Shown: positions 3-60,486 of the stretch, one piece after another
How positions within the stretch are numbered: the stretch's first letter is position 1
How the letters are laid out: each line of letters opens with the position of its first letter
NCBI GenBank assembly: GCA_041659805.1
Contig: JBAZXP010000001.1
Location: 589-64,588, forward strand
Length of the DNA stretch: 64,000 bases
Source of the DNA: Microgenomates group bacterium
GTDB taxonomy: Bacteria; Patescibacteriota; Microgenomatia; Daviesbacterales; UBA10151
Direction of reading: 5' to 3'
Program-made: the position numbers and the translations under genes
Notes under the pieces: model-generated
Told to the model about the DNA's origin: nothing
What the model saw: the letters and a program-made list of their open reading frames with translations, nothing else
Databases searched by the model: none

Positions 3-3000
3 ACTAATGCTTCTGCTAATGGGTATACCTGGGGATCATCTAGTACATCAGCTGTTGATGCTTCTGGTAATGTTTCTGCTTCTTTAATTCCTACAGTTAC
101 TGATACTTATGATTTAGGTAGTGCTTCTAAAGAATGGAATAACATTTATGTTAAATCCTTAACAGGTACTGGCACCTTAAATGTAGGGAGCATATCTACA
201 TCTGGTAATCTAACCTTTACCACTCCTAATTCCAGAATTCAGGCTGCTGATTCTTCTTCCACTAACCTTTTGGGTGCTAATAGATATGCTTATTCTAAAC
301 CTGTAACTATTACTAATTCCTCTGCTTCTACCCTAACCACTAATACCACCTATACTTTGGTTATTACTGGTTCTGATGCTGCTGCTATATATTCCAGCTC
401 ACAGGCTGATTTTGATGATGTGAGGATTGGTTATAATGGTAATAATGAAATAACCAGAATCATTGATAAATTTACATCAAGTGAAATATATATTAGATTT
501 GCCATTCAGGCAGATATAGCTGCTTCTGGTGGAACAAATAGCCTTTATGCAATTTACTGGGGTAATATAGCCGTTAGTGCCCCCACTGACTATACCGGAT
601 CCACCTTGCTTGATAGTGCTAATACCGCATCTGATTGGACTACTTCTGATGGTACAAAAATAGCTGTGACTGGAGACACCACTAACTTTACTCAAACAAC
701 AAGTAGTACCCAGCTATTTGCTTCAGGATCAAATATGACTGCTTTTTCCACAACCTCTCAAGGACAATTACCACAAACTATAATGGATCACAGTTCAGCT
801 GTAGCCGCTATTGGAGGAGCAAATTATTTATACATTATAGGGGGTGCTACAAAATCCACTGTTTATAAAGCAACTATTGATGCTTCTGGTAATATAGGAA
901 CTTTTGCCACCACCGGTCAGGGACAGTTACCATCAAATGCCTATAGAACAGGCTCTCATATACTTGCCCTAAATGGCACTAATTATATTTATACCTTAGG
1001 AGGACATAATGGAAGTATCCGTTTATCCACTGTTTATAAAGCAACTATTGATGCTTCTGGTAATATAGGAACTTTTGCTACCACCAGTCAGGGACAGTTA
1101 CCACAAGTCCTTGAAATACCTCATGAATCCAATATGGTTACTATTGGCAGCACAACTTATGTTTATGTAATAGGCGGTTATGGTTCTAGTGCTGTATCCA
1201 CTGTTTATAAAGCAACTATTGATGCTTCTGGTAATATAGGAACTTTTGCCACCACCAGTCAGGGACAGTTACCTGCTACACGTTATTTTCATAGCTCAGA
1301 AACTGTTACTATTGGCGGCACAACTTATGTTTATGTAATAGGCGGCGGCGGACCTTTATCCACTGTTTATAAAGCAACTATTGATGCTTCTGGTAATATA
1401 GGAACTTTTGCCACCACCTCCCAAAAGCAGTTGCCACAAAGTCTTCAAAATCACTCTTCAGTTGTTACTAGCGTTGCTGGAACTAATTACTTATTTGTAA
1501 TAGGTGGTGCGGGTGGTACTGGTTTATCCACTGTTTATAAAGCAACTATTGATGCTTCTGGTAATATAGGAACTTTTGCCACCACCAGTCAGGGACAGTT
1601 ACCAATACAATTGGCTTATCAAACCTCTAATTTAGTTTCAGTTGGAGGAATAAATTATATTTATACTCTGGGGGGTCAAGATCAACAAACGTATGCTACA
1701 AAATCCACAGTCTACAGATCTCAAATAGGCGGAGCTGGTGGAACTGGAGTAACAGTTAGTAGGGATTTAGGAGCTGGTACCACAATAGATCTAACTGGCA
1801 AAAATATGATTACTTTTTGGAGCAGATCTCCAGTTACAGGTGATGCTGCTAATACTGTTGTAGAATTTTCTGAGGATAATGCTACTTGGCAAACAAGTAG
1901 TGCTTTATCTTTAACAACAGCTAATACCTGGGAACAACAATACTGGGATATATCCGGGATTGCTAATGCTGCCAAAGATGCTATTAGATATATTAGATTT
2001 AGATTAACAGGAGATATTCTCCAACTTAACTTTGATTTAATGAGAGGTGAATCTAATTTCTTTGGTGGAACTACCTCTTCTTCTTTAGATTCTACTACTA
2101 CTTTTGGTAATAATTTATACCTTAATACAGAAGGGGGTGGAATTTTAGGATTAAATTATAATTCAGGATCAAATGGTGACTTTAATATTTATAATGGTGC
2201 TACCACTTCCCTATTTACAGTCAAACAAAATGGTAATGTAGGAATTGGTACTACTAATCCTCAATATCTCTTGGATGTTAATGGGACTTTAGGTATAACT
2301 GGAGCTTCCTCATTCACAGGAGCAGCTACTTTTAACTCCACTATAAATTTAACTAATTCTAATACTTTAACAGGGGTAACTAACTATATTCAGGCTAATA
2401 AGGGGTTATCTGTAGGAGCAGGTACTACTTACTACCTGGATCAATCTGGTAATTTATCTGCTAATACTGGTACTTTTGCTTCTACTTTAGGAGTTACAGG
2501 TTTAATTACAGCTTCAGGTGGGTTAACTCTACCAACTAATCAAAACCTGGCTCTTTCTTCTGGTGCTGGTACTTATTCACAAACATTTACAGGTACTACT
2601 ACAGATGCTATGACTGTTACTGCTTCATCATTATCTACTGGTACAGCCTTAACATTAACAGGGCCGACTTCAACTGGAGTTACTGATCATTTTGTAAAAA
2701 TTTCTTCTGATATTGGGGCTGCTTCTTCTTTACTTAATTTAAATCCAGACTTTTCAGGTTCAGCTGTAACTGGATATGGAATCTATAATTTAGCCACAGA
2801 TGCTACAGCTAATGGGAATACTAATTATGGGTATTATGGATCTTTAACCTTAACTGGTAATGCTGCTAAAACTGGGGTTGGTTTATATTCTACCCTTTCT
2901 ACTTCATCCACCACAGCTGATACTTTAATTGCTGCTGATTTAGCTACAAGTGTAAGTGGGATTGTGACAACAGGCACCAGAAATATCTATGGACTCCGTT

Positions 3001-4298
3001 CTCAACCAGCCTCAACTGGAGCTTCCACTGGTGGAACTACCAATGTTTATGGTGAATATGTTAAATCAGGAGGAACAGTTGGAGTAGGTGGAACCATAAA
3101 TTCTTATGGACTATACGTGGCTAATGGAACCATGAATACCACAGGTTTATCTACTAATACAGGTTTGTATGTAGAAACTCCAAGTGGGGCTGATACCAAT
3201 TATGCAGCCATTTTTGCAGGAGGAAATGTAGGTATTGGAACCACTGCCCCTGCTCATACTATTGATGTTGTTGGTGATGCAGGGTTATCTACAGGAACAT
3301 TATGGACTAATACTTCTGATTCACGAGTAAAACAAAATATAGAAACTATTCCTGATGCCCTGGGACTGATTGCCAGATTAAAGCCATCACAATATATGTA
3401 TACTCCTGAGTATTTGGCAAAACATCCTGAGATAAAAGATATAGAACATTATGGATTTATAGCCCAGGACTTCCAGGAAGTGTTCCCTGAAAGTATTTCT
3501 ACAGGAGCTGATGGATTCCTACAGGTTAATGCTTCCAATGTGATTCCTTACATGACCAAGGCTATTCAGGAGTTGTTGGCTAAATTTGAAAATCATGATA
3601 CAAGAATCAAGGATTTGGAGGATAGAATAGCTAGTGGTTCAGCGAATCAGCAGGTCAGCACATCAGCAGGTCAGCTATCCAGCACTTCTGCCGACATTGC
3701 TGATACTCTGAGTATTTCTGACACTCTGAACTTAACCCCACCATCAATTTTGCTCTCTACAATCAGTGCCCAGTTAGTTGATTTAGCAGTTACCTCTGAA
3801 GCTACTTTCTCAGGAAAATTAACAGCATATGAGGCTACTATTTCAGATACCTTTAAATCCTTGGGAGAAACTTTCCTGGGAAATACAACTGTGGCAGGTA
3901 ATTTTAATATTGATGGAACAATGAATATTTCCGGTAATTCCTTAAGCACCTTAGGTGATTTTTATATTCAAAATGGACCTCTGGCAGGAATTATAGATAT
4001 CTTTAATGGCAAAATAATTATTGATGGCTATGGAAATATCACAACTTCCGGACAAGTGACCACTCAAAAGGTAAATATCAGTGAATCTGCAGGACAAGCT
4101 ACCCTGCTTGCTGGTCAGAATTGGCTCACAATCATGAATACTCTGGTTACTGAAAATTCCCTAATCTTTATTACTCCAACTACTGTGACAGACAAAGTTA
4201 TATCTGTAACTCAAAAAAATTCAGGTTCAGATTTCACAGTTCAAATTCAAACTCCATCCACAACAGATATTAAATTTAACTGGTGGATCATTAATTAA
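3..4298 (+). CDS. Giant surface protein paralog, 5'-truncated by the window edge. The reading frame is open from nt 3; the listed M at 270 is internal. It carries a DUF2341-like domain, at least five Kelch-type propeller repeats, a second propeller/lectin-like region and a Peptidase_S74 intramolecular-chaperone (tail-fibre autoprocessing) domain, followed by a ~250-aa tail.
   Basis: The frame starting at nt 3 has no stop and reads TNASANGYTWGSS... The N-terminus aligns with an internal region of the 3056-aa ORF: '...IYSKPVTVNNTSAGT...DYDDVRISYNG...FTSSEINIRFAIQANI' versus 'YSKPVTITNSSAST...DFDDVRIGYNG...FTSSEIYIRFAIQADI'. The unit 'STVYKATIDASGNIGTFATTSQGQLP' repeats. The C-terminus 'SDSRVKQNIETIPDALGLIARLKPSQYMYTPEY...HYGFIAQDFQEVFPESI' matches the S74 IMC consensus SDxRxKxNI...GfIAQEvqeV.P. 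Confidence 0.8.
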   Translation, partial: TNASANGYTWGSSSTSAVDASGNVSASLIPTVTDTYDLGSASKEWNNIYVKSLTGTGTLNVGSISTSGNLTFTTPNSRIQAADSSSTNLLGANRYAYSKPVTITNSSASTLTTNTTYTLVITGSDAAAIYSSSQADFDDVRIGYNGNNEITRIIDKFTSSEIYIRFAIQADIAASGGTNSLYAIYWGNIAVSAPTDYTGSTLLDSANTASDWTTSDGTKIAVTGDTTNFTQTTSSTQLFASGSNMTAFSTTSQGQLPQTIMDHSSAVAAIGGANYLYIIGGATKSTVYKATIDASGNIGTFATTGQGQLPSNAYRTGSHILALNGTNYIYTLGGHNGSIRLSTVYKATIDASGNIGTFATTSQGQLPQVLEIPHESNMVTIGSTTYVYVIGGYGSSAVSTVYKATIDASGNIGTFATTSQGQLPATRYFHSSETVTIGGTTYVYVIGGGGPLSTVYKATIDASGNIGTFATTSQKQLPQSLQNHSSVVTSVAGTNYLFVIGGAGGTGLSTVYKATIDASGNIGTFATTSQGQLPIQLAYQTSNLVSVGGINYIYTLGGQDQQTYATKSTVYRSQIGGAGGTGVTVSRDLGAGTTIDLTGKNMITFWSRSPVTGDAANTVVEFSEDNATWQTSSALSLTTANTWEQQYWDISGIANAAKDAIRYIRFRLTGDILQLNFDLMRGESNFFGGTTSSSLDSTTTFGNNLYLNTEGGGILGLNYNSGSNGDFNIYNGATTSLFTVKQNGNVGIGTTNPQYLLDVNGTLGITGASSFTGAATFNSTINLTNSNTLTGVTNYIQANKGLSVGAGTTYYLDQSGNLSANTGTFASTLGVTGLITASGGLTLPTNQNLALSSGAGTYSQTFTGTTTDAMTVTASSLSTGTALTLTGPTSTGVTDHFVKISSDIGAASSLLNLNPDFSGSAVTGYGIYNLATDATANGNTNYGYYGSLTLTGNAAKTGVGLYSTLSTSSTTADTLIAADLATSVSGIVTTGTRNIYGLRSQPASTGASTGGTTNVYGEYVKSGGTVGVGGTINSYGLYVANGTMNTTGLSTNTGLYVETPSGADTNYAAIFAGGNVGIGTTAPAHTIDVVGDAGLSTGTLWTNTSDSRVKQNIETIPDALGLIARLKPSQYMYTPEYLAKHPEIKDIEHYGFIAQDFQEVFPESISTGADGFLQVNASNVIPYMTKAIQELLAKFENHDTRIKDLEDRIASGSANQQVSTSAGQLSSTSADIADTLSISDTLNLTPPSILLSTISAQLVDLAVTSEATFSGKLTAYEATISDTFKSLGETFLGNTTVAGNFNIDGTMNISGNSLSTLGDFYIQNGPLAGIIDIFNGKIIIDGYGNITTSGQVTTQKVNISESAGQATLLAGQNWLTIMNTLVTENSLIFITPTTVTDKVISVTQKNSGSDFTVQIQTPSTTDIKFNWWIIN
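845..1610 (+). repeat. Intragenic tandem repeats: five near-identical ~171-nt (57-aa) units encoding propeller blades.
   Basis: The string 'tccactgtttataaagcaactattgatgcttctggtaatataggaacttttgccaccac(c/t)(a/g)gtcagggacagttacc' recurs at about 855, 1026, 1197, 1359 and 1527. Periods are 171, 171, 162 and 168 nt. A sixth unit near 1700 is degenerate. Confidence 0.85.
3225..3625 (+). repeat. Long dispersed repeat, copy A, pairing with 59280..59680. It is the S74-domain coding block shared by the two giant paralogs and includes a ~105-nt stretch of 100% nucleotide identity.
   Basis: 'ggtattggaaccactgcccctgctcatactattgatgttgttggtgatgcagggttatctacaggaacattatggactaatacttctgattcacgagtaaa' is identical at 3236-3340 and 59289-59393. 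The flanks are about 90% identical. Confidence 0.85.
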
Positions 4299-39265: not shown

Positions 39266-40866
39266 ATTGGGTCAACTTTTGGCTTAAAAACATCCAGTCT
39301 GTCTCCATCAGGCAGGAAATAATTATTAATTTTAATTAAGTTTGTTGATTTGTTTGCTTCCAAAAACATGGAAATTTGCTTTAAAACTGCAAAATACCTG
39401 ATTCCTCCCTCAGGTCCCAAATCCTTACTGGCAACTAAAGTTACATCAAAACCAACCAGATATTTTTCCAGTGATATTTCATCAGAAAAAGGAGGTAAAT
39501 CGTAGGGAGCCATAAATTGAATCTGATTTAGATTCAATTGACGTCTGGTCAATTCCATATTGACCTGATTAAGATTTGGTTTCTCACAAAGCACCAAGAT
39601 CTTGATATCCTTTCCGGGGTTGTGTTTGGAAAGTTCAGACGCAATTGTTGAGTTTGGCCAAACAGTTTGATCATACAAAGGAGCCAGGTATAAATTAGTA
39701 TCCTTGCCTAAATTAATCAAGTCTATCCAGCCAAATCCAGGGATTTCCTGTGAGCGGCGAAAGTCTACTTTCTTAGGGTTAACAGGCACACCAAATGAAA
39801 GAACAAAATAATAAAAAACAAGATATAAAACTAGAACAGTAGTAAGTATTTTAGCCACAATTTTATATTTTTGGAAAACCAAAAAATAAGCAATTATCAT
39901 AGTGGCAAGTGGCGCTAAAAAGATCACATACCTTAAATCCTTATTCCCTATCAAAGTAGCTACCAAATAAACAAAAACATAGGTAGGTAAAAGATAGCTT
40001 CTCCTTCTTTTGATGAAATAAATAGCTGATATCAAAAAGGCCAACATTCCTACCCAGGTCAGCTGAAAATTGGTAATCATAAAGGGATAAAACTTAAAAT
40101 TTTCCCAGGAAAAAATCGTTTGTGGATCAGCTGACTCTGCAGTAGAGGTAATACTTAAGGCGTGCAAAATTACAGGGTAATTATGAATATACCAGGGTAA
40201 ATTGATCACCAAAACTACTACTGCTACTAAAAGTAGATTTTTCCAGGCAAGAGACGGAAAGTTCTTAACAAGCTTAACTATTACAGGCACAAAAAGGAAT
40301 ATTAAAACATTCCACTTTATAGCCAGAGCCAAGCTTAAAAAGAGGCCGAAAAGAACTGTATTTTTACGGTTTTGAAAATAATCAGACTTCTCCAAAAAGA
40401 AAAGCGTTCCCAAAGCCATGGCTAATATGGGAATTTCCAGTAAAAATTCCCTGGACAAAGCATACATATTTGGCAATAGAGAAAATAACAGTGCAGCTAA
40501 AAACCCTGCCCTTTTATCTTTAAATAATTCAGACGTATATAGATACAAAAATATAATGCTCAGGATAAAAAAACTAGTTACCACCATTGGTCCTATCAGG
40601 ATATTTTTCCCAAAAATGAGCATCAGGAACGAAACTAAAAGATGTATAAAAGGAGGGTAATAATCAGAAATCGAAAGAAAATTTTCAGAAGTACTAAATT
40701 TAAAAAAGTCTGTAAAACGGAAAGCAATAATAGTATGCCCTGCCGGATCCCAGGCAAATGGTATTTTATTTAGATTAATCCAGATAAAATTACCAACTAA
40801 ATGAAACAAACAAAGAAATATAAGTAAAAAAGGATAGATATTGAGCTTAAAAACATTAGGCACCAA
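39262..40866 (-). CDS. GT-C fold glycosyltransferase-like membrane protein (PMT_2/ArnT-like, GT39/GT83 type).
   Basis: It is 534 aa, with about 11 TM helices and a C-terminal soluble domain. It overlaps the downstream 992-aa gene by 4 nt, consistent with an operon. The first extracytoplasmic loop is 'AWDPAGH'. Confidence 0.4.
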   Translation of the reverse strand: MVPNVFKLNIYPFLLIFLCLFHLVGNFIWINLNKIPFAWDPAGHTIIAFRFTDFFKFSTSENFLSISDYYPPFIHLLVSFLMLIFGKNILIGPMVVTSFFILSIIFLYLYTSELFKDKRAGFLAALLFSLLPNMYALSREFLLEIPILAMALGTLFFLEKSDYFQNRKNTVLFGLFLSLALAIKWNVLIFLFVPVIVKLVKNFPSLAWKNLLLVAVVVLVINLPWYIHNYPVILHALSITSTAESADPQTIFSWENFKFYPFMITNFQLTWVGMLAFLISAIYFIKRRRSYLLPTYVFVYLVATLIGNKDLRYVIFLAPLATMIIAYFLVFQKYKIVAKILTTVLVLYLVFYYFVLSFGVPVNPKKVDFRRSQEIPGFGWIDLINLGKDTNLYLAPLYDQTVWPNSTIASELSKHNPGKDIKILVLCEKPNLNQVNMELTRRQLNLNQIQFMAPYDLPPFSDEISLEKYLVGFDVTLVASKDLGPEGGIRYFAVLKQISMFLEANKSTNLIKINNYFLPDGDRLDVFKPKVDPI

Positions 40867-40933: not shown

Positions 40934-42145
40934 TTATTTATTATTTTTTAAATAATTTGATACAAGTCCTTTAAAAGATACATTAGGTTTTGGGCTTTCA
41001 GCTGAACCGAATGAATAATCATTCATATTTAGTGTATGAACAAAATATCTTGGATAATCCGGTCTTGCTTGTTTTACCTCTACCCCTTGTAAAAATGCCT
41101 TTATGCTTGCAAAAGCAGTGGCAGATTTAACTTCCTGTCCAAAAATCTGAACCTGCGTTCCGGGAACAGTTGGATTTTTAAGTATCATTGTTACTTCATC
41201 TTCATATGAAGTTCTGATAAAGACAGTCTGATGTCCAAAATCAACTCCTCTGTTAGCTCCTGACTGACATAAAATCATTCTGATATTTCTTTCCTTACTT
41301 TTAAGAGAAATATCAGCTTCTTCAGCATCAATTCTTACTAATACATGTTTAGGGAGAACTAATCTGAATTCTACGTCACCAGTTTCTTTATTTAAAGTTA
41401 ATCTGGGATCATCTTTGCTTTGAAAATCATAAAAGTTTACTTTATGACCACCTTTAGTGTCCCCCCAAATGTATTCAGCCTTTCCATCTGCTACTCTTTG
41501 ATCCCAATCTTTTAAAGCTTCTTCTGATTCTGTTTTTTTAATCAAATCTCTGTCAATTAACATAGAACCAGGATCAGCTAAAACATTTTGTAAAGGATTA
41601 ATATCCTGTCCTAGATCTTTTAAGCTGCTGGTAAAAGGTTCATGATTGGCTAAATCAACTCCACCGGTAACTCTAGTTGGTACTCCAAAAAGTCCCAAAA
41701 TAGGTTTTCCGTTTAAATCAATAACCTTCCACTCGCCTTGTGGGCAAGCTTCTTGTGTTGCTGTAGGAGTTGGTGTTGAATCTGCTTTCTTAACAGTTGC
41801 AATAGCTGTAGCAGTTGCTACAGGTTCAGTTGGTCTTGGTGTAACTGTAAATTTTTCATTTCCAATCACAGCAGTAAAACTTCTTCTTGCTTCAGTAAGA
41901 GCATCTGCATCTGCTTTGCTCACACCTGCAACGGGTGTTTCACAAGGACAAGGTGTTCCACCATCAATTCTAAGATTATTAGAATTAACATTGGTGGTTC
42001 TAATAGAATTGTCATTGTTAATTTCAGCAGAAAAATTGCTTGTATTAAAGCTATCTGTAACCTGAACACAACCAGAAGCTAAGGTTGCAATTCCAAGTCC
42101 GACTCCTCCTGCTATTAAAATACCTTTTCGTTTATTTATTTCCAT
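40934..42145 (-). CDS. Putative lipoprotein or secreted protein with a Thr/Pro linker.
   Basis: The N-terminus 'ILIAGGVGLGIATLASGCVQ' has a lipobox-like LASGC. The linker is 'TPRPTEPVATATAIATVKKADSTPTPTAT'. Confidence 0.4.
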   Translation of the reverse strand: MEINKRKGILIAGGVGLGIATLASGCVQVTDSFNTSNFSAEINNDNSIRTTNVNSNNLRIDGGTPCPCETPVAGVSKADADALTEARRSFTAVIGNEKFTVTPRPTEPVATATAIATVKKADSTPTPTATQEACPQGEWKVIDLNGKPILGLFGVPTRVTGGVDLANHEPFTSSLKDLGQDINPLQNVLADPGSMLIDRDLIKKTESEEALKDWDQRVADGKAEYIWGDTKGGHKVNFYDFQSKDDPRLTLNKETGDVEFRLVLPKHVLVRIDAEEADISLKSKERNIRMILCQSGANRGVDFGHQTVFIRTSYEDEVTMILKNPTVPGTQVQIFGQEVKSATAFASIKAFLQGVEVKQARPDYPRYFVHTLNMNDYSFGSAESPKPNVSFKGLVSNYLKNNK

Positions 42146-51202: not shown

Positions 51203-51315
51203 AAGTCGACTATATCATATATCATCAATTGCTTATTGACTACTATTATAATAAGCCGTAATGTTTATATAGATCTATGCAAAGTATGTTCTACGCCTAG
51301 GCAAACTATATCAAT

Positions 51316-54300
51316 ATGTCTCTGCCCCAAAACCAATCTCAACAGTTAGTGCCCGTAGGTCAGGCTGCCAAGATATTAGATGTTTCTGTTGATACTATCC
51401 GCAGATGGGAGAAAAAAGGAATACTTCAATCCACCAGGCCAAATGGTAAAGACCGTTATTTTTCCCTGGAAGATTTACATAAAGTTAAAGCCTCCAAGCC
51501 AATCTTAATCTCTGATGCTGCTAAAACTTTGGGTGTTTCCCCTGCCATTTTAAGAAAAATGGAAAAGGAAGGAAAGATTCAACCACAAAGAGATGAAAAA
51601 GGTACTAGGATCTATGATCAAAACATCTTGAAAACTGTTAATTCAAATATTACTACTGTAGAAGAATTACTTGATCTAAGTAGATCAGAAGGTAACTCTC
51701 AGTATCATATCCCTTTAACAGAAAGCAAGTTACATGAGTATGCAAATAGCTATGAGCAAGTGGCAAGTAGCCAGAAATTTCTAGCTCTCAGCCACAAGCT
51801 ACAAGCTACAAGCATTGTTTCAGGTGTATTAGCCTCATTAGTTTTGGCCGTCTTAGTTCTAGCCAGAGTTTCTAATTTTGATTTAGCCAATTTAGCTATG
51901 AGCTATGGGCAAGTGGCAAGTGGCCAGAAGCAATTAGCCACTAGCTATAAGCCCCTTGCACTTAGCAATTCTAACGTCCTTGCTGCTACGACCTCAAACC
52001 ATTACCTGAATTTTGCTACAGACTTAATAGTAGAGGGAGATTTAGCAGTAGGGGGATTACTTAATAATATAAAACTAATCCCAGGAGGAGATAATGTTAA
52101 TAGGACTTTAACAGTTTCTGCTCCTGTTACTTTAGACCAAGATTTATCTACTGCTAGTTCCCCTACTTTTGCAGGTTTAACAGTACTTTCCCCAATTAAT
52201 GCGCCTTCTGCTTCTACCTCAACTTTAAGTTTAACAGGTACTAAAGATCAAATTACTTTTGATGTATCAGGTGTTAAAAGCACATTAACCTGGACTCCTA
52301 CCTCTGCTCAAACTTTAACCTTACCCAATGCTACAGATACCCTGGTTGGTAGAGCTACTACAGATACTTTAACCAATAAAACAATTTCAGGATCTGATAA
52401 CACCATCTCCAATATCCAGTCCTCTGCTCTGTCTGGAAGCTATACTGGTATCACAGGATTAGGAACAATTACCACAGGCACCTGGAACGGGACAAAAATA
52501 GGGACAACCTATGGGGGAACAGGGCTCACAACATATACAACAGGTGATTTACTATATAGTAGCGCATCAAATACTTTAGCTAATTTAGCAGTAGGAACTG
52601 CTGGGCAGGTATTAACAGTCTCAGGAGGCCTACCTGCCTGGACTGCCTCTTCCTCTATTGTTGATTTAACTTCTGTTGCTTCAAATATACTGCCTTCAGT
52701 CAATAACACATATGATTTAGGATCTTTAACTAATCAATGGCAAGATGCCTGGTTTGCAGGAACTTTAACTGTGGCAGGAAATATAGTTGGAGCTACCACA
52801 GGAACTTCTGGTTATTGGACCAGAAATGATGCTACCGGAGATCTATATTCAGCCACACTCACAGATCAAATAGGTATAGGCACTACTGCTCCTGCTTCCC
52901 AGTTAGAAATTAAAGCCACAACTAATCCTGCTTTAAGTTTATATGCAGGAAGTGGCACAGACAATATCTTTCAGGTCTTCAATAATGCTGGGGATACTAC
53001 CTACTTTGCTGTTGATTCAACAGGTAAAATGTCTTCCTCTGCTTTTCAATTAACTGATGCTGCTAATGCTGTAGTGGGTACTGCTATTGCTGGAGGCTGG
53101 ACTTTAAATGGTAATACCTTTACCTACAGAAGAATTATTACTATCACCAACTCATCAGGATCAACTATGCCTAAGTATTATGAAATATCCTTACCTCTTT
53201 CTTCTTCTGATTCTAATCATGTATATACTAATTCTCAACAAGCTTCTCCTTACAAGGATTTTAGGATAGCATATGATTCTGGTACCCCTACAGAGATAGC
53301 CAGGAATGTTTCATCTTTTACTTCATCAAATGTTACTACCACTTTCCAACTTCAAGCCAGTATAGCCAACTCAGGAACTGCTACCTATTATATTTATTAC
53401 TCAAATTCAACTTTGGCTACTACCCCTGATACTTATACAGGTACTACTGTTTTGGATAATGGGGATGCAGCTATTGATTGGACTTCTGGTTCTAGCGATT
53501 TTGCTTTATCTCAAGAAACTACAATAAAACATGAAGGTACAGGAAGTTTAAAAACAGTTTCTTCATTGGGCACAATGGGAGCTTTTGCTACAACATCTCA
53601 AGGACAGCTATCAACAATACTTAATTCCCCAACTTCCTTTTCTACCTCTTTAGGCGGAACAAATTATGTTTATGTATTGGGCGGAAATAATGGATCCGCC
53701 GATGTATCGACTGTTTACAAAGCTGATTTAAATACTACAACTGGAAATATTTCTACCTTTACTACCACTTCTCAAGGGCAGCTGCCGCAAGTATTATCCG
53801 GAGCTGCTTCTGTAGCTGCTGTCCCGTCTATTGATGGAGGGACTGGGGCTGATGGGACACTGGATTTATCCTTAGGTAGTGGCGCTGGTGGATGTAATGG
53901 TACTGGTCTTTCCTGGGCTGGATCTACTTGTACTATAGATACTGATACTAAATCCACTTTTAATTTTACTACTATTAATGTTTCAGCTGGTACCACCTTA
54001 ACTACTTCTGGCACTACTTTTCCTACCCTTAAAGCTACAGGATCTGTAACAATAGCGGGAGCTATCGACTTAGCAGGTAAAGGCTATGCAGGAGGATTAA
54101 CAAGTGGCAATGCAGGATGCAACGGTTACGGACCAGGTTTTGGTCGGGCTTTTAATGGCAATGCAACCCAAGGCAATTGTGCTTTTGCAACATCAATAAA
54201 TGCTGGTGGTGGAGGTGGCTATGGCGGTGCAGGAGGCACTGGAGCAGTGGGTTCTGTTGCAGGAACAACTTATGACACAGCAGCAGTCGGTAGTGGTGGT

Positions 54301-57300
54301 GGTGGAGGTGGAAATGGTGGTAATGGCTATGGCGGTGCAGGAGGAGGAGGAATACAAATTCAAAGCGGAAGCACGATTTCTATAACCGGCACAATTTCAG
54401 CAAATGGCGCAAATGGAATTACTACTGCAGCTTATGCTGGCGGTGGCGGAGGTGGTAGCGGCGGAAGAATAACCTTGCAAGCTGCAAGCGCAATTACCAA
54501 CTCAGGCACCATCAGCGCCAATGGAGGTAATGGTGGAGGCAGTGATGCTGGTGGAAGAGGTGGAGGTGGCGGAGGCGGCGGAAGAATAACCATTCAGGAT
54601 AGCAGTGGAGCTGCAGGGGGAACTATCACTGCTACTTATGGAACTGGTGCTATTGCTACTCAAGGAAATGGTGCCAATGGAACAGCTGGTGTAATAACAC
54701 AAACAGCTAATCCTACCTTAATTTATCTTTTAGGCGGTATTAATGGATCTACCAGACAATCCACTGTCTATAAATCAAGTATTACAGGATCAGATTTAGG
54801 AGCTTTTGATACCACCTCCCAAGCTCAACTACTTGTAGCGCTCTCTTACCCAACTTCTCAAACTATAACTATTAGCAATACCAGCTATGTATATGTCCTG
54901 GGTGGAAACAGTGCTTCCGGTGATGTTTCTACTGTGTATAGATCAACCGTAACTTCCGGTAATTTAGAAACTTTTGCCACAACAAACCAAGGTCAACTTC
55001 CACAAGTTTTATCCAAGCACTCCTCCTCTACTGTTAGTATCAGTGGAACCAATTATGTCTATGTTATAGGAGGCATTAACGGGTCAACCGCCCAATCAAC
55101 CGTATATAAATCAACCGTAGATGGTTCTGGTAATTTATCCAGTTTTGATACAACAAATCAAGGACAATTACCAGCTGCTTTGTATTCCACTTCCTCAAAT
55201 ATAGCTACTGTTGGAGGAACAAGTTACCTTTATGTACTTGGGGGAATAAATAGTGGTGGGAGTAAGGTTAGTACAGTGTATAAAGCTCAGATTGGGGCTA
55301 CTGGTGACATAGGAGCATTTTCTACCACAGGTCAAAATCAGCTCCCTGCTGCTTTAGGTTCCCTTTCTTCTGTTACAGCAACAGTAGGTACTTCACAATA
55401 TATTTATACTTTGGGTGGAGCTGGTACTTCTGCCTCAGTCAGCACTGTGTATAAAGCCAAGATTAATGATATGAGCAGCTCATATGCTACCAAAACCTTA
55501 ACTTCCACTGATTTAACCAATAAAAATGATTTAACTTTCTGGGTTTACTCAGATACTACAGGAGCATATATGCACTTTGATATCTATGATTCAACAGCTG
55601 GTTGGACTAATTGTGCTGATTTTACTATTTCCTCTGCTTCTACCTGGGAACAAAAGAGTTGTGATATATCAGCTGTAGCTGCTGCTTCCAAAGATGGGAT
55701 CACATCTTTAAGGATTTCTACTGATTCAACAGTTAATATTACTTCCTCCTTTACCACTTACTTTGATGATATCCAAGCTACACCTAATTTTGCTTCCTTT
55801 TCTAACACTACCTCCTATGCCAGAGCTATCCTTGGAGCTGCTAATTTAGCTGTTAATGCCCAGGGTACAGGTTTGGTCCAAATTAACTACTCTGCCTCCC
55901 CTAATGCTGCAGCAGGATCTGGAGGCTTTGCTCTGTATGATGGCACTACTAATGCTTTGTTTGTAGTTGATGGAACTGGGACAGTTACCACAGGTATCTG
56001 GAATGGGACTGATATAGCTGTTACTGCTGGAGGTACAGGAGCCTCTACTGCTGCTGATGCCAGAACTAATTTAGGACTGGCTATAGGAACCAATGTTCAA
56101 GCCTATGATGCTGATTTAACTACTTATGCAGGTATTACTCCTTCTGCTAATGTTCAAACACTCTTGGGTTCTGCTGATTATGCTACAGCTAGAACCAATT
56201 TAGGCTTAGGAACTATGGCTACTCAAAACATAGCAGGAATATCTGCAGCTATTTTACCTGATACTAATAATAGTTATGATTTAGGATCTGTTACCAATCA
56301 ATGGCAGGATGCCTGGTTTGCTGGTAATTTAACTGTAGCTGGGAATTTAATAGGAGCATCATCTGGCACTGCTGGGTATTTCTCAAGATCAGGCACTACC
56401 CTTTCTACTGCTACTGCTGGAGATAATATTACTACCACTGGATCTGTAGGAGTTGGTACTACCTCCCCTACTTCTACTGCTAAACTTGATGTAGCTGGAA
56501 ATATAGCTTTGTCTACTAATGGTTCTTCTATTAAAGCTTTGGATTCCTCTACCTCAAATACTGTTGGAGGAAATAGCTTTATTTATTCCAAACCAGTCAC
56601 AGTAAATAACACTTCTGCAGGTACAATGTCCCAAAATACCACCTACACTTTAATGCTGACAGGCACAGATGCTTCTGATGTTTATTCCAATTCCCAGGCT
56701 GATTATGATGATGTGAGAATTTCGTATAACGGAACAGAAATAGCAAGGGTGGTTGATAAATTTACATCATCTGAGATTAATATCAGGTTTGCCATCCAGG
56801 CTAATATCCTAACTTCTGCCTCTGATGCAAATTATAGAATTCATTATGGAAATGCCGGTCTTTCTGCTCCTACTGCTTATTCTGGATCTACTGTTTTAGA
56901 TCAGTCTGATGCTGCTTCAGATTGGACTTCTTCTGATACTGCCCAAATTGTCATGTCTGATGATACAACCTACTATGTAGAAACTACCGGCAGCGTCAAA
57001 GGAACAGGACAATCCAGCAACTTACAGGCCTTTGCCACCACCAGTCAAGGACAGCTACCTGATACAGTTGCTAACAATTCAGTAACCTCAGCCACCATAG
57101 GTGGAACTACTTATGTTTACTCACTTGGAACAAATGGTGGTTCAGGTACTAATTCTGCTGTTTATAAAGCTGTTCTTGACGGGTCAAATAATCTTGGATC
57201 ATTTAGCACTACCAACCAGGCCCAGTTCCCACAAAACTTTAGTTATACCGCTCCCTTTACTGCTACTTTCAGTGGTACAACCTACTTATATGCTATAGGA

Positions 57301-60300
57301 GGCTTTTCTAGTGCTGCAACATCAGTTGTATATAAAGCTACTCTTGGAGCAACAGGTGATATTGGACCGTTTAGTACCACCAATCAGGCTCAACTACCTG
57401 CAACAGTATATTCTCATAAGGGGGTAGTGATAAATATGGGTGGAACTAATTATATTTATATAATCGGAGGACTTGGTTCTTCAGCTGTATACAAAGCTAC
57501 TATTAATTCAACTACCGGTGATATTGGGGCATTTGATACCACCAGCCAGGGACAATTATTGGCAACTTCTGCTGGTCTGACTGCCACTGCTGCCTCAATT
57601 GGAGGGACTAATTATATTTATGTGATCGGTGGAGGCAGCACAGGCAATACTGTTGTTTATAAAGTCCTTGTTGATGGTTCTGGTAATCTTGGACCATTTA
57701 GCACCACCAATCAAGCTCAATTACCAGCCAAACAAAAAGACCATACCACACAAATAGCCACCATTGGCGGAACCAGTTACATTTACTCTATGGGGGGTAT
57801 CTCCCTTGCTACAAGTCAGTCAGTTGTTTATAAAGCCCAGATTGATCCTGCCACTGGTAATGTGGGAACTTTTGATACCACCAGCCAGGCTCAATTACCA
57901 GACACCCTAAAAAATGCCTCTTCCTTTGTTTTTGCCAATGGAGGGATCAACTACATTTATACAATTGGGGGCGCTCTTGGTGGTGCCAGCTGGTCTTCTG
58001 TTGTATATAAAGCCCAGATTGGAGGAGCTATTGGTAACGGTGTAACTATTACAAAAACAATAAGCAGCACTGATTTAACTGGTAAGAATATGGTTACTTA
58101 CTGGTTAAGAGCAGCTGAAACAGCTACAGCTGCTAATTTAGTATTGGAATTTAGTAATGATGGTGGGACTAATTGGAGTACTTCAGCTGCCCCATCCTTA
58201 ACTTCTGCTGATACCTGGCAGCAGCAGTATTGGGATATTTCTGGAATTGCTAATGGATCTAAAAATACTACCACCAAGCTCAGATTTAGGTTAACTGGGG
58301 ATGTTAATGGTTCTTTCCAATTTGATCAGGTTAGGGCAGAAGGAACACTTTTTTCTGGTACTTCTACCTCCACAGTTGGTTCTACCAATTCTCTAACCAA
58401 TAATTTATATCTTAATGCTCAGGGTCTGGGAGTTTTAGGTATTAATTATAATTCAGGCAGCTCTGGTGGATTTACTGTTTTTAATGGTGGAACAACTGCT
58501 CTGATGAATGTATTACAAAATGGTAATGTGGGAATTGGTACTACAGCTCCTGGACAAAAACTGGATCTTTCATCTGGTTCTTCTTTTGGAATTAATGGGA
58601 CTGCAGTATTATCCGGGACTGTATTAGGCACTGGAGTAGTTACTTCATCCTTAACTACTGTAGGAGCTTTGGCTTCAGGTTCCATTGCAACTGGCTTTGG
58701 TAATATCTCAACAGCTAATACTATCACTACCTCTGGAACTATGGGCACAGCTGCCACCACTGCTTTTACAGGCTTAACAGGAGTATTTTCTACCTCTGTC
58801 ACTTCCCCACTAATCATAGGATCAACTTCTGCCAATGGTACTTTAACCTTAGAAGGAAATAATACAACAGGAAATACTGCCACCAATCCTAATTTATTCT
58901 TTAAGGTTGGAGATTCTGCAGGCACAACTGCCATAACTATTCTAAATAATGGAAATATAGGAATTGGAACCACTTCCCCTGGAGCTAAACTGGATATTGG
59001 TACTGGTAATATTAAATTTAAAGGTGATGACGCCAATAATGGTGGAGGTCAAAATGCTCTAATTGCATATGGAAGTGATAATTTTGCCTGGACTGATGGT
59101 TGGGGAAACCTAAAATTTGGAACAAAAACCAATCAAACCTTAGGACTGGAAACAAGTGGTTATGGTGACTTTTATCTAAAAGATAACAGTGCCAGCAGAA
59201 ATGTAATTCAATATTGTAATTCTTCCTGCGGTACAAATGGAGGGTTATTGCGTCTTCAACCAGCAGGTGGAAATATCGGTATTGGAAGCAGTGTGGGTAT
59301 TGGAACCACTGCCCCTGCTCATACTATTGATGTTGTTGGTGATGCAGGGTTATCTACAGGAACATTATGGACTAATACTTCTGATTCACGAGTAAAGCAG
59401 AATATAGAAACAATTCCTGATGCTTTGGGACTGATTTCAAGATTAAAACCTTCACAGTATCTATATACCCCAGAATATTTAGCCAAGCATCCTGAGATAA
59501 AAGATATAGAACATTATGGATTTATAGCCCAGGACTTCCAGGAAGTGTTCCCTGAAAGTATAACTACAGGAGCTGATGGATTCCTGCAGGTTAATGCTTC
59601 CAATGTGATTCCTTATATGACCAAAGCTATTCAGGAACTGCTGGCTAAATTTGAAAACCATGATACAAGAATTAAAAACCTTGAAGATGTCATTGCGAGC
59701 AACTCAGCAGTTCAGCTAGTCAGCAGTTCAGCTAGTCAGCAATCAAGTCAATCAGCTGATATCGCCGATACTCTGAACATTGCCGATTCGCTGAACTTAA
59801 CCCCACCATCAATCCTGCTTTCTACTACCAGTGCTCAGTTAGTAGATTTGTCTGTTGCCTCAGAAGCTACTTTCTCAGGAAAATTAACAGCATATGAGGC
59901 TACCATCTCTGATACCTTCAAATCACTCGGTAATACTTTCCTGGGAAATACTACGATAGCAGGAGACTTTAATATAGATGGAACAATGAGCATTACTGGA
60001 AATTCTATAAGCACACTGGGTAACTTATTTATCCAAAATGGACCGTTAGCAGGAAATGTAGACTTCTTTAATGGAAAAGTAGTGATTGATAATCAGGGTA
60101 ATATTAAGGTTGGAGGAAACTTAGAAGTAGCTGGCGCAATGGTAATTGCAGCTAACGCAGGCGAAGACTTGGTGGCGGGAGAGGCTGTTTATATTTCATC
60201 AGATGGAACTGTCAGCAAATCTGATTCAACTGTTTCAGAAAAGGCCCAAATAGTGGGTTTAGTTGCTTCAGATGCTATTCAAAACAGTGAGGTAAGGGTA

Positions 60301-60486
60301 GCTATTAGTGGTAAATTAGGCGGATTTACAAACCTAATTGCAGGCAAAAAATACTACCTTGGAGAATTTGGTCAAATCACCACTACCCCACCAATAAACA
60401 TACTAAGACATATCCAAGCAGGCATCGCTTTCAGTTCAACTGAAATTATAATTCAAATCTTTGACTTTAACGGATTAATAAATTAA
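51316..60486 (+). CDS. Giant (3056-aa) membrane-tethered surface protein. From the N-terminus it has two MerR/Xis-type HTH domains, one TM helix, repeated beta-propeller/Kelch regions, a Gly-rich low-complexity block, a DUF2341-like domain, more Kelch repeats, a lectin-like region and a Peptidase_S74 IMC domain plus a ~250-aa tail.
   Basis: The HTH domains are 'VGQAAKILDVSVDTIRRWEKKGIL' and 'ISDAAKTLGVSPAILRKMEKEGKI'. The TM is 'IVSGVLASLVLAVLVLARV'. The Gly-rich block is 'GGGGGYGGAGGTGAVGS...GGGGGGNGGNGYGGAGGGG'. DUF2341 is 'YSKPVTVNN...DYDDVRISYNG...IRFAIQANI...YRIHYGN'. The S74 domain is 'SDSRVKQNIETIPDALGLISRLKPSQYLYTPEY...HYGFIAQDFQEVFPESI'. Confidence 0.8.
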   Translation: MSLPQNQSQQLVPVGQAAKILDVSVDTIRRWEKKGILQSTRPNGKDRYFSLEDLHKVKASKPILISDAAKTLGVSPAILRKMEKEGKIQPQRDEKGTRIYDQNILKTVNSNITTVEELLDLSRSEGNSQYHIPLTESKLHEYANSYEQVASSQKFLALSHKLQATSIVSGVLASLVLAVLVLARVSNFDLANLAMSYGQVASGQKQLATSYKPLALSNSNVLAATTSNHYLNFATDLIVEGDLAVGGLLNNIKLIPGGDNVNRTLTVSAPVTLDQDLSTASSPTFAGLTVLSPINAPSASTSTLSLTGTKDQITFDVSGVKSTLTWTPTSAQTLTLPNATDTLVGRATTDTLTNKTISGSDNTISNIQSSALSGSYTGITGLGTITTGTWNGTKIGTTYGGTGLTTYTTGDLLYSSASNTLANLAVGTAGQVLTVSGGLPAWTASSSIVDLTSVASNILPSVNNTYDLGSLTNQWQDAWFAGTLTVAGNIVGATTGTSGYWTRNDATGDLYSATLTDQIGIGTTAPASQLEIKATTNPALSLYAGSGTDNIFQVFNNAGDTTYFAVDSTGKMSSSAFQLTDAANAVVGTAIAGGWTLNGNTFTYRRIITITNSSGSTMPKYYEISLPLSSSDSNHVYTNSQQASPYKDFRIAYDSGTPTEIARNVSSFTSSNVTTTFQLQASIANSGTATYYIYYSNSTLATTPDTYTGTTVLDNGDAAIDWTSGSSDFALSQETTIKHEGTGSLKTVSSLGTMGAFATTSQGQLSTILNSPTSFSTSLGGTNYVYVLGGNNGSADVSTVYKADLNTTTGNISTFTTTSQGQLPQVLSGAASVAAVPSIDGGTGADGTLDLSLGSGAGGCNGTGLSWAGSTCTIDTDTKSTFNFTTINVSAGTTLTTSGTTFPTLKATGSVTIAGAIDLAGKGYAGGLTSGNAGCNGYGPGFGRAFNGNATQGNCAFATSINAGGGGGYGGAGGTGAVGSVAGTTYDTAAVGSGGGGGGNGGNGYGGAGGGGIQIQSGSTISITGTISANGANGITTAAYAGGGGGGSGGRITLQAASAITNSGTISANGGNGGGSDAGGRGGGGGGGGRITIQDSSGAAGGTITATYGTGAIATQGNGANGTAGVITQTANPTLIYLLGGINGSTRQSTVYKSSITGSDLGAFDTTSQAQLLVALSYPTSQTITISNTSYVYVLGGNSASGDVSTVYRSTVTSGNLETFATTNQGQLPQVLSKHSSSTVSISGTNYVYVIGGINGSTAQSTVYKSTVDGSGNLSSFDTTNQGQLPAALYSTSSNIATVGGTSYLYVLGGINSGGSKVSTVYKAQIGATGDIGAFSTTGQNQLPAALGSLSSVTATVGTSQYIYTLGGAGTSASVSTVYKAKINDMSSSYATKTLTSTDLTNKNDLTFWVYSDTTGAYMHFDIYDSTAGWTNCADFTISSASTWEQKSCDISAVAAASKDGITSLRISTDSTVNITSSFTTYFDDIQATPNFASFSNTTSYARAILGAANLAVNAQGTGLVQINYSASPNAAAGSGGFALYDGTTNALFVVDGTGTVTTGIWNGTDIAVTAGGTGASTAADARTNLGLAIGTNVQAYDADLTTYAGITPSANVQTLLGSADYATARTNLGLGTMATQNIAGISAAILPDTNNSYDLGSVTNQWQDAWFAGNLTVAGNLIGASSGTAGYFSRSGTTLSTATAGDNITTTGSVGVGTTSPTSTAKLDVAGNIALSTNGSSIKALDSSTSNTVGGNSFIYSKPVTVNNTSAGTMSQNTTYTLMLTGTDASDVYSNSQADYDDVRISYNGTEIARVVDKFTSSEINIRFAIQANILTSASDANYRIHYGNAGLSAPTAYSGSTVLDQSDAASDWTSSDTAQIVMSDDTTYYVETTGSVKGTGQSSNLQAFATTSQGQLPDTVANNSVTSATIGGTTYVYSLGTNGGSGTNSAVYKAVLDGSNNLGSFSTTNQAQFPQNFSYTAPFTATFSGTTYLYAIGGFSSAATSVVYKATLGATGDIGPFSTTNQAQLPATVYSHKGVVINMGGTNYIYIIGGLGSSAVYKATINSTTGDIGAFDTTSQGQLLATSAGLTATAASIGGTNYIYVIGGGSTGNTVVYKVLVDGSGNLGPFSTTNQAQLPAKQKDHTTQIATIGGTSYIYSMGGISLATSQSVVYKAQIDPATGNVGTFDTTSQAQLPDTLKNASSFVFANGGINYIYTIGGALGGASWSSVVYKAQIGGAIGNGVTITKTISSTDLTGKNMVTYWLRAAETATAANLVLEFSNDGGTNWSTSAAPSLTSADTWQQQYWDISGIANGSKNTTTKLRFRLTGDVNGSFQFDQVRAEGTLFSGTSTSTVGSTNSLTNNLYLNAQGLGVLGINYNSGSSGGFTVFNGGTTALMNVLQNGNVGIGTTAPGQKLDLSSGSSFGINGTAVLSGTVLGTGVVTSSLTTVGALASGSIATGFGNISTANTITTSGTMGTAATTAFTGLTGVFSTSVTSPLIIGSTSANGTLTLEGNNTTGNTATNPNLFFKVGDSAGTTAITILNNGNIGIGTTSPGAKLDIGTGNIKFKGDDANNGGGQNALIAYGSDNFAWTDGWGNLKFGTKTNQTLGLETSGYGDFYLKDNSASRNVIQYCNSSCGTNGGLLRLQPAGGNIGIGSSVGIGTTAPAHTIDVVGDAGLSTGTLWTNTSDSRVKQNIETIPDALGLISRLKPSQYLYTPEYLAKHPEIKDIEHYGFIAQDFQEVFPESITTGADGFLQVNASNVIPYMTKAIQELLAKFENHDTRIKNLEDVIASNSAVQLVSSSASQQSSQSADIADTLNIADSLNLTPPSILLSTTSAQLVDLSVASEATFSGKLTAYEATISDTFKSLGNTFLGNTTIAGDFNIDGTMSITGNSISTLGNLFIQNGPLAGNVDFFNGKVVIDNQGNIKVGGNLEVAGAMVIAANAGEDLVAGEAVYISSDGTVSKSDSTVSEKAQIVGLVASDAIQNSEVRVAISGKLGGFTNLIAGKKYYLGEFGQITTTPPINILRHIQAGIAFSSTEIIIQIFDFNGLIN
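59280..59680 (+). repeat. Long dispersed repeat, copy B, pairing with 3225..3625. It is the S74-domain block of the giant gene.
   Basis: See copy A. The identical stretch runs 59289-59393. Confidence 0.85.

Follow-up and report, generated by a model that had tools for sequence, protein, structure and literature searches.

The locus described here raises the question of why a surface protein built like a phage tail fibre should begin with domains of a DNA-binding type. The gene in question lies in a 64-kb stretch of contig JBAZXP010000001.1 from a Microgenomates group bacterium (the window, 64,000 nucleotides in full) and encodes a protein of 3056 residues, the giant. An earlier note made from the letters of this DNA had proposed two MerR-type helix-turn-helix (HTH) units, one transmembrane (TM) helix and a very long extracellular region for this protein, and had seen in it either a host-attachment appendage or a signalling adhesin with a regulatory head. 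Judged by its sequence, the giant does combine a DNA-binding-type inner end with a membrane-anchored, phage-tail-fibre-like surface protein. The reading that we regard as probable, with modest confidence, is that of a trimeric membrane-anchored fibre for attachment or recognition, whose tethered cytoplasmic tandem HTH would bind a dyad at its own promoter.

The open reading frame (ORF) of the giant starts at the first start codon past an in-frame stop. The orthologues likewise begin with MSLP(K/L) and a conserved promoter lies upstream, both of which back this start codon. From the N-terminus, the protein is composed of two HTH units, one TM helix and approximately 2,870 extracellular residues, the latter consisting of two duplicated modules followed by a Peptidase_S74 domain and a conserved C-terminal module of 260 residues. 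Each of the duplicated modules contains a shaft, a beta-sandwich, a six-blade Kelch-like propeller and a CBM-like domain, with a Gly-rich insert in module 1 only. The duplication is seen when the giant is compared with itself, where residues 379-835 match residues 1551-1983 with 38% identity, and residues 1134-1450 match residues 1989-2307 with 43% identity.

Both HTH units were recovered with Pfam, for which all matches were judged against the curated cut-off of each family, in bits. MerR matches two stretches of the N-terminus with an E value of 3.5e-19, and MerR, MerR_1 and HTH_17 are all above their cut-offs. With NCBIfam, the giant matched MerR/HspR/excisionase-type HTH models only, none of which reached its full-length cut-off; the CueR model covers residues 65-108, in unit 2. 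The AlphaFold2 (AF2) model of residues 1-260, obtained from a 19-sequence alignment, displays two winged HTH units and, after them, a long helix with the TM segment in it, with a predicted local distance difference test (pLDDT) above 90 for residues 11-110 and with the helices of unit 2 at residues 65-72, 76-84 and 102-111. Comparison of the head with the PDB by Foldseek gave DNA-bound MerR-family proteins (NmlR, MtaN and CadR), RacA-DNA and BldC-DNA, with BldC (6ama/6amk) as the top structural match of the individual units (target-normalised score, TMt, of about 0.8; root-mean-square deviation of 1.4-2.2 A). A sequence search of the PDB with the head gave GlnR, MerR, CueR, SoxR and BldC. Over the 19 aligned heads, residues A17, L21, S24, T27, R29, W31, G35 and R47 are invariant, and R41 and G44 nearly so; the invariant residues correspond to the helix and wing positions of the MerR signature. 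Unit 2 is followed by a short helix, a linker and the TM helix, and neither the coiled-coil dimerisation helix nor the effector domain was found by Pfam or AF2. For this reason, the head is best described as BldC-like minimal units and not as a canonical MerR regulator.

The TM helix foreseen in the earlier note is the sole TM-like hydrophobic segment of the giant (Kyte-Doolittle 2.51). In 109 head-bearing proteins, the 15-residue flanks contain on average 3.06 K+R before the TM helix versus 1.77 after it (Wilcoxon p=1.5e-9), the N-flank being the richer one in 74 proteins and the poorer one in 19. The part before the TM helix is 31% charged, and the part after it consists of 43% S/T/G/N with 13% charged residues. 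Given this charge rule, and given that headless relatives begin directly with a TM helix or signal anchor at residues 13-45, the predicted N-in/C-out orientation is well supported, and the N-terminus would be inside the cell. Beyond the membrane, the motif (V/I)L(G/A)x(S/T/E) is found at a median distance of 29 residues past the TM helix in 56 of 115 family proteins, versus 5% of the control windows, which were stretches of 115 residues elsewhere in the same proteins. This juxtamembrane motif is present in giants, in small HTH-TM-SH3 proteins and in the headless relatives P0034 and P0036; it may serve for processing or mark where the folded shaft begins. The DNA that encodes the TM segment is flanked by an in-frame direct repeat of 52 nt (51748-51799 and 51901-51952, 75% identity, 153 nt apart), whose copies encode SYEQVASSQKFLALSHK and SYGQVASGQKQLATSYK; the repeat is absent from the orthologue P0031.

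A candidate target for the tandem head is found ahead of the gene. The predicted promoter of the giant has a -35 element TTGACT (51236-51241), a spacer of 17 nt and a -10 element TAATGT (51259-51264), and was missed by the consensus promoter scan because the -10 element matches at just 4/6 positions. It is followed by the dyad TCTATGCA-N12-CGCCTAGG, which covers about +3 to +30 relative to the predicted start of transcription, with 14 nt between its end and the ATG. Many loci contain a 28-bp dyad of the form CCTAKGCA-N12-TGCMTAGG (consensus CCTAGGCATTGGTTAACCAATGCCTAGG) between a TTGACA-type promoter and the ATG. CTATGCA is present within 200 nt upstream in 14 of 26 tandem-head loci, versus 0.35 expected. 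The half-site CTA(T/G)GCA was found within 150 nt upstream of 19 of 25 tandem-head genes, versus 7 of 185 other ORFs from the same loci (odds ratio 80, p=2e-16; controls of intergenic composition). When 1.1 Mb was scanned with a position weight matrix (PWM), all matches of at least 20 bits were within tandem-head loci, and at least 13 strong dyads, in loci from different genomes, end 3-30 nt before tandem-head start codons.

With 15.9 bits, the dyad of the window is the sole PWM match to reach 10 bits across the 64 kb, and its place is within the approximately 100 nt where it would be expected. The orthologous regions L081 and L082 have kept both the promoter and the arms of the dyad, with 11 nt between the arms. 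A MerR-type over-long promoter spacer (19-20 bp) with the operator inside was not observed at the giant, where the promoter spacer measures 17 bp and the -10 element precedes the dyad. The dyad was also considered as an RNA hairpin, which was ruled out because in 23 aligned copies of the arms the paired cells amount to 71.1%, versus 71.1 +/- 1.4 after shuffling, with no excess covariation; the Rfam families found in the window were tRNAs only. The arms thus vary independently, which fits protein-binding half-sites and not a selected RNA stem. The co-occurrence of head and dyad suggests, as the simplest reading, that the heads recognise the dyad and autoregulate their own genes.

Strong dyads away from start codons were observed in ORF-poor DNA of loci L002 (8500, 8858 and 9385), L009 (8257, 8741 and 9950), L006 (6212 and 7177) and L012 (17760), and one of the off-start dyads is placed directly after the stop codon of a giant, ahead of the promoter of the next gene. 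Such a distribution points to operator arrays or a small regulon. Between radA and the giant, the 113 bp of intergenic DNA also contain the 9-mer ACTATATCA twice (51209-51217 and 51305-51313), with three copies in the whole window versus 0.7 expected. The orthologous regions have kept this 9-mer in part only, and it was not taken as the operator; it could be part of the divergent radA promoter or a second site.

On the other side of the membrane, module 1 comprises a tail-fibre-like shaft, a DUF2341-like beta-sandwich (residues ~600-745), a propeller (750-1390) and a CBM-like domain (1390-1490). PHROG tail-fibre families match its shaft at residues 309-462, and no match to shaft residues 225-600 was obtained by tblastn in 50,697 phage records. 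The Gly-rich block that had been noticed earlier corresponds to residues ~841-1133, inserted after blade 2 of the module 1 propeller, and has no Pfam match. In module 2, the shaft and the beta-sandwich are followed by an uninterrupted six-blade propeller (1893-2240) and by a domain that is Reelin-subrepeat-B-like or CBM-like (2243-2345), for which the Reelin_subrepeat-B match (E 2.9e-5) is below the cut-off. Of the Kelch-like blades of the earlier note, 6+6 regular ones of approximately 56 residues, carrying VY[KR] and F.TT.Q motifs, are visible, and Pfam Kelch matches are recorded for the homologues P0029, P0031, P0040 and P0066; the Kelch profiles themselves are below cut-off in the giant (Kelch_3 20.2 vs 22 bits, Kelch_1 15.2 vs 20.1). 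The DUF2341 domain (PF10102) that had been named cannot be claimed, given that it reaches 15.1-18.2 bits in the giant and its homologues versus a cut-off of 23.4, with no match in module 2. A regular-expression search located five capping-loop motifs, (V/I)GIGTT(A/S)Pxxx(L/I), at residues 519, 1711, 2405, 2548 and 2660. Directly before the S74 domain (residues ~2655-2685), VGIGTTAPAHTIDVVGDAGLSTGTLWT matches the crystallised tip of Bdellovibrio Bd3182 (8ojn) with an E value of 0.003.

The Peptidase_S74 domain, which the earlier note had placed at the C-terminus, is indeed present (PF13884 at residues 2689-2748, 49.1 bits vs a cut-off of 22). It is, nonetheless, not terminal: it ends near residue 2800 of 3056, and 256 further residues come after the domain. 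Its landmarks are S2689 and K2694 in SDSRVK, GFIAQ at 2735 and a coiled coil at 2761-2800. The domain aligns with the MYRF ICA domain (7dc3, E 8.6e-7), its Ser and Lys falling on the catalytic pair of MYRF, and SDx(R/N)xK is kept in 10/10 homologues, Ser and Lys being invariant. PHROG tail-fibre profiles align their own last residues with the S74 domain of the giant, and in a tblastn search of phages this domain alone was matched, with 31-35% identity, and nothing after it. The C-terminal module that follows is probably beta-helical and has a weak Bactofilin match (E 0.0035), and the end domain of 'type ii' has a weak Phage_cement_2 match (E 0.0046) that is below cut-off. A word-indexed search with the C-terminal 242 residues gave two short matches only. 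A perfect 16-nt tandem repeat of 2.4 copies (59704-59741), which could be a site of length variation, is present in the DNA for the Ser/Gln-rich linker that joins the S74 coiled coil to the C-terminal module. By analogy with known fibres, the extracellular part would be a trimeric, self-cleaving and adhesive fibre.

The earlier note had called such a cytoplasmic head on a transmembrane protein of this size unusual, a judgement that has to be tempered for Patescibacteria. A whole-protein search gave fifty relatives of 1,700-5,300 aa, named Daviesbacteria, Microgenomates, WWE3 or Patescibacteria, about half of which join MerR with, often, S74 Pfam matches. Automatic annotation gives these relatives the name 'MerR family transcriptional regulator' or else 'tail fiber domain-containing protein'. 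The members of the family agree at their ends and vary in between: a head of one or two HTH, the TM helix, the juxtamembrane motif, tail-fibre-like shaft repeats and variable modules are followed by S74 or a 'SSTPGVAMKA' domain, a coiled coil, the LNLTPP...FNG module and one of two end domains. With residues 1-330 of the giant as query, an exhaustive HMMER search retrieved 833 representative clusters when E<=1e-3 was allowed and 299 when E<=1e-10 was required, which makes the tandem head common in Patescibacteria. Many homologues of 2,000-5,000 aa join MerR and S74. No paper on MerR-HTH/TM/giant or S74 proteins in the candidate phyla radiation (CPR) was found, in a search that left subscription journals mostly outside. 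The ingredients are known, namely S74 fibres, cellular MAT adhesins, BldC-type domains and membrane-bound transcription factors, and the whole-protein homologues stand unremarked in databases; the novelty appears to lie in their being joined, in how widely Patescibacteria carry the joined form and in the dyad that goes with it.

Among the 142 new top matches of the HMMER search, which have 112-5145 aa (42 of at least 1000 aa), exactly one TM-like segment is present in 102, at a median position of residue 176 (interquartile range 167-189). The S74 domain was detected in just 5 of the 42 large head-bearing proteins, and in ten mid-size members the head is the only part with a Pfam domain. Given that the lengths vary widely, that S74 is found in few and that one head is borne by many extracellular regions, the tandem-HTH/TM head appears to be a promiscuous N-terminal module of Patescibacteria surface proteins, with the S74 fibre as one partner. 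Tandem-head genomes in GTDB include Daviesbacteria, Woesebacteria, Levyibacteria, Chisholmbacteria, Saccharibacteria, 'Patescibacteria group' and some labelled 'Gammaproteobacteria', one of the last being OZ246414.1, a single chromosome of 0.9 Mb; many tandem-head ORFs in these genomes exceed 2,500-3,400 aa. The headless relative P0036 (2746 aa) has an intein-like insertion in its shaft (Pfam PF14890), with Hint-like sequence at residues ~470-800.

Features of the giant gene and of its surroundings, in window coordinates
Feature	Coordinates	Strand	Basis
Predicted sigma-70-type promoter	51236..51264	+	Sequence reading; conserved upstream in L081, L082
Dyad-symmetric candidate operator	51274..51301	strand-neutral	PWM, family conservation
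Giant gene, 3056 codons + stop	51316..60486	+	ORF in window
Winged HTH unit 1, MerR/BldC type, cytoplasmic, residues 11-60	51346..51495	+	Pfam, AF2, Foldseek
Winged HTH unit 2, residues 62-111	51499..51648	+	Second Pfam MerR stretch, CueR model, AF2
Conserved cytoplasmic linker motif TTVEELLDLSR, residues 113-123	51652..51684	+	Alignment with P0031, P0032, P0042
Single TM helix, N-in/C-out, residues 165-187	51808..51876	+	Hydropathy, AF2 helix, positive-inside rule
Juxtamembrane motif NVLAATTS...DLAVGG, residues 220-250, ~30 aa outside membrane	51973..52065	+	Family conservation
Extracellular module 1, residues ~251-1490	52066..55785	+	Internal duplication, blade motifs, weak Pfam matches, PHROG
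Extracellular module 2, residues ~1491-2345	55786..58350	+	38-43% identity to module 1; 47% to paralog
Distal shaft with capping-loop motifs, residues 2346-2688	58351..59379	+	Regular expression, match to Bd3182
Peptidase_S74 intramolecular chaperone/autoprotease domain, residues 2689-2800	59380..59715	+	Pfam, MYRF ICA, PHROG
Conserved C-terminal module LNLTPP...FFNGK, residues 2826-2935	59791..60120	+	Kept in homologues with and without S74
End domain 'type ii', residues 2936-3056, ends IQIFDFNGLIN	60121..60483	+	Comparison with paralog and homologues
284-aa gene: signal peptide, ~100-aa domain, two C-terminal TM helices	60497..61351	+	
Paralogous fibre gene, C-terminal 1431 residues, N-terminus outside window	3..4298	+	Sequence comparison

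The paralog at the start of the window shares the extracellular architecture, as had been noted: it is 47% identical to the giant over residues 1642-2434 of the latter and 77% identical over residues 2640-2956, and it has its own S74 domain. Its last domain is another one, the 'type i' end that finishes with FNWWIIN, and the two window paralogs differ precisely in this end domain. The window further contains four tRNAs plus leuS, argS and rho, with radA directly upstream of the giant and ATP synthase b and delta downstream. In the orthologous locus L081, from a Daviesbacteria metagenome-assembled genome (JAQTZF010000001.1), the order is LytR_C, cupin, radA, the giant P0031, a 283-aa gene, b, delta and alpha, and the third assembly, L082, has the same radA-giant-284aa-atp order. 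Compared with their L081 counterparts, the neighbours in the window show 63-89% identity and the giant just 35-53%, with its modules arranged in another way. This shared gene order, together with the contrast in identity between neighbours and giant, indicates that the giant gene is a cellular one, neither a prophage gene nor an assembly chimera, and by the sequence comparison vertically inherited and fast-evolving.

The 284-aa gene begins 11 nt past the stop codon of the giant, with no terminator between them, and is probably co-transcribed with it. The ~100-aa domain of its product is homologous to the 'SSTPGVAMKA' domain (blastp to P0040 with E 5e-12, and to others), which replaces S74 in S74-less giants. 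This gene is always placed directly before ATP synthase b and delta (window, L001, L015, L016, L018-L020, L025, L029, L031, L047, L081 and L082), and in many genomes head-bearing giants are found before, after or divergent from the cluster that it forms with the ATP synthase genes. The ATP synthase a and c genes were not seen between the 284-aa gene and b. The idea that the 284-aa protein ends as an F-ATPase c-subunit hairpin was rejected, given that it has no BLASTP alignment to E. coli AtpE (approximate query) and no Pfam match. Elsewhere in the window, a run of large ORFs (403-992 aa) at 23994-26306 (+), 34396-36300 (-), 36287-39265 (-), 39262-40866 (-) and 40934-42145 (-) gave no NCBIfam match at E<=1e-10.

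A function may be proposed from what was observed, namely the domain architecture, the topology rule, the recurrence of the family, the synteny, an S74 catalytic motif that is conserved and a dyad that goes with tandem-head genes. In a Daviesbacteria-like cell of the Patescibacteria, the giant would be a membrane protein of type II (N-in, C-out), with its approximately 2,870 external residues forming a long surface fibre, most likely trimeric and of the general kind of the Bdellovibrio MAT adhesins. The propeller and CBM-like domains of this fibre would provide ligand binding, and its likely job would be to attach to another cell or surface, or to recognise it. The S74 chaperone domain would drive folding and trimerisation from the C-terminal side, with a self-cut expected at Ser2689. 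Inside the cell, the two minimal MerR/BldC-type winged HTH domains would bind DNA sequence-specifically, the probable target being the CCTAKGCA-N12-TGCMTAGG dyad that overlaps the transcription start of the giant's own gene. The giant would in this way be a membrane-tethered autoregulator, whichever the direction of regulation, with a ToxR/CadC-like logic and a MerR-type (BldC-like) domain.

Several points weigh against this proposal. Another regulator, a soluble one, could be what binds the dyad, and several strong dyads are located up to 1.8 kb upstream or downstream of genes and not at the start codon. The window dyad is degenerate, with its centre off consensus, and 5.5% of shuffled windows reach 15.9 bits somewhere. 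A trimeric fibre gathers three tandem heads, which do not map simply onto a two-fold symmetric site. A cut at S74 would shed the conserved C-terminal module and the variable end domain, which fits poorly with an adhesive tip; the fragment after S74 may be a discarded extended chaperone, or stay bound, or have a function of its own. The AF2 model of the C-terminal 417 residues (10-sequence alignment, monomer) has a pLDDT of 41, with about 65-70 for the S74 core alone, which is too poor for a fold search or for a test of fold or trimer, and it was left unused. The host-attachment role of the earlier note is in line with the likeness to MATs (the Bd3182/8ojn match, SDxxxK, the five capping loops and the swapped ends), adhesion itself being proposed by analogy only.

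With respect to the head, the regulatory role is favoured by the conserved dyad at the genes' own 5' ends. The release of a cleaved head, as imagined earlier, could not come from S74, which lies outside the cell, 2,500 residues past the TM helix, and whose cleavage cannot free the head as in MYRF. A release by other proteases would be possible in a contact-sensing relay of the Notch/RsgI/anti-sigma-like kind, in which ligand or pull leads to a cut at the juxtamembrane VLAAT, then to an intramembrane cut and to a soluble tandem-HTH transcription factor. The enrichment of the juxtamembrane motif past the TM helix, the presence of one head on many different extracellular regions, as for a signalling output domain, and the association of the dyad operator with head-bearing genes are all in line with such a relay. 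Nonetheless, we consider it improbable, given that the motif is also present in the headless P0034 and P0036 and so may simply start the folded shaft, that ToxR-type regulators act without release and that no protease partner was identified. In a wider version, which we hold to be a rather distant prospect, the head would be the output of a widespread Patescibacteria signalling system by which surface proteins report contact or load to the chromosome; engagement of the fibre would lead to juxtamembrane and intramembrane cleavage, or to changed clustering of the heads, and through either to an altered occupancy of operators at the fibre gene and possibly at other genes.

It is also conceivable that the head has no regulatory role in a purely structural adhesin. 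The HTH of RodZ binds MreB, and the head could similarly be a module for protein interaction or positioning (RodZ-MreB-like) or a tether between nucleoid and membrane (RacA-like). RacA-DNA is indeed among the structural neighbours, the head is found on very many unrelated surface proteins and a partner could bind at the conserved linker TTVEELL. If the head were only a protein-binding module or a non-specific tether, neither the invariance of the MerR DNA-binding signature residues nor a specific dyad at the genes' own 5' ends would be expected, and this explanation appears unlikely. That the gene belongs to the tail fibre of a phage or prophage, or that assembly or annotation has fused a small regulator to a fibre, is hardly credible. 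The S74 domain and some shaft repeats do match phage tail-fibre families, but isolated phages match the S74 domain only, the flanking housekeeping genes are in conserved order in three independent assemblies, the fusion of head and fibre with the same start recurs in many independent homologues, and without the TM helix the fibre has no export signal. The membrane-anchored fibre with an autoregulatory head is the reading retained as probable.

Patescibacteria (CPR) are mostly uncultured bacteria with genomes of approximately 1 Mb that are thought to live attached to other cells, and this attachment and its sensing are poorly understood. At least 13.5 kb of the 64-kb window is spent on two such fibres, and at least three are found in a related 1.1-Mb genome. 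If these fibres are adhesins whose inner ends bind their own operator, they become candidate host-recognition proteins under a regulatory circuit with a defined DNA site, and hundreds of database entries for a 'MerR family transcriptional regulator' would be explained as giant surface proteins. The cellular tail-fibre-like (MAT) adhesins would also be extended to a second, unrelated lifestyle and envelope type. The contact-signalling alternative, if true, would amount to a bacterial Notch-like relay from adhesion to transcription in organisms with very few classical regulators.

Among known systems, the fibre is closest in kind to the MAT superfamily of Bdellovibrio (Caulton et al. 2024, PMC10769870), trimeric tail-fibre-like surface adhesins for prey recognition that include S74 and non-S74 subfamilies, a capping-loop motif of the VG(I/V)(G/N)TxxPxxxL type and swappable tips, and that have a signal peptide followed by a conserved beta-rich cell-proximal domain of ~130 aa. 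Like Bd3182 and Bd2133, the giant would be a cellular tail-fibre-like fibre from a family with S74 (SDxxxK) and non-S74 members, with capping-loop motifs, with several paralogs per genome that swap end domains, and with a sequence match to Bd3182. It differs in the HTH-HTH-TM N-terminus, which stands in place of the signal peptide, in the 256 conserved residues that trail an S74 domain which is terminal in MATs, in a length 3-4 times that of MATs, with propellers and a Gly-rich insert, and in its host, a Patescibacteria cell and not a diderm predator. With the phage fibres, such as the K1F endosialidase and the T5 L-shaped fibre, the giant shares a homologous S74 domain (31-35% identity) and fibrous shaft repeats, whereas the match is confined to S74, the gene is chromosomal and its product membrane-anchored.

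In MYRF, a membrane-bound transcription factor is released by an S74/ICA domain with a Ser-Lys catalytic dyad, the order being DNA-binding domain, S74 and TM helix, and cleavage on the cytoplasmic side frees the DNA-binding domain (PMC3742443). The giant likewise has a DNA-binding domain, a TM helix and S74 in one polypeptide, but arranged as DNA-binding domain, TM helix, fibre and S74, an order in which S74 is outside the cell and the DNA-binding domain is not freed. Each head unit is a MerR-type winged HTH of ~50 residues that resembles BldC of Streptomyces, a minimal MerR-like DNA-binding protein, and has neither a coiled-coil dimerisation helix nor an effector domain. BldC is a soluble monomer of 68 residues that multimerises head-to-tail on direct repeats (PMC5859096). 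In the giant, by contrast, two units are fused and membrane-tethered, and the candidate site is an inverted repeat. ToxR, CadC, TcpP and RodZ are bitopic proteins, in which a single TM helix connects a cytoplasmic HTH at the N-terminus to an extracytoplasmic domain, and they bind DNA, or in the case of RodZ a partner protein, at the membrane. The DNA-binding domain of ToxR is of the OmpR/PhoB type and that of RodZ of the Xre type, and their outer domains are small sensors. The giant is set apart from all of them, without homology, by its MerR-type head and by an outer fibre of 2,900 residues.

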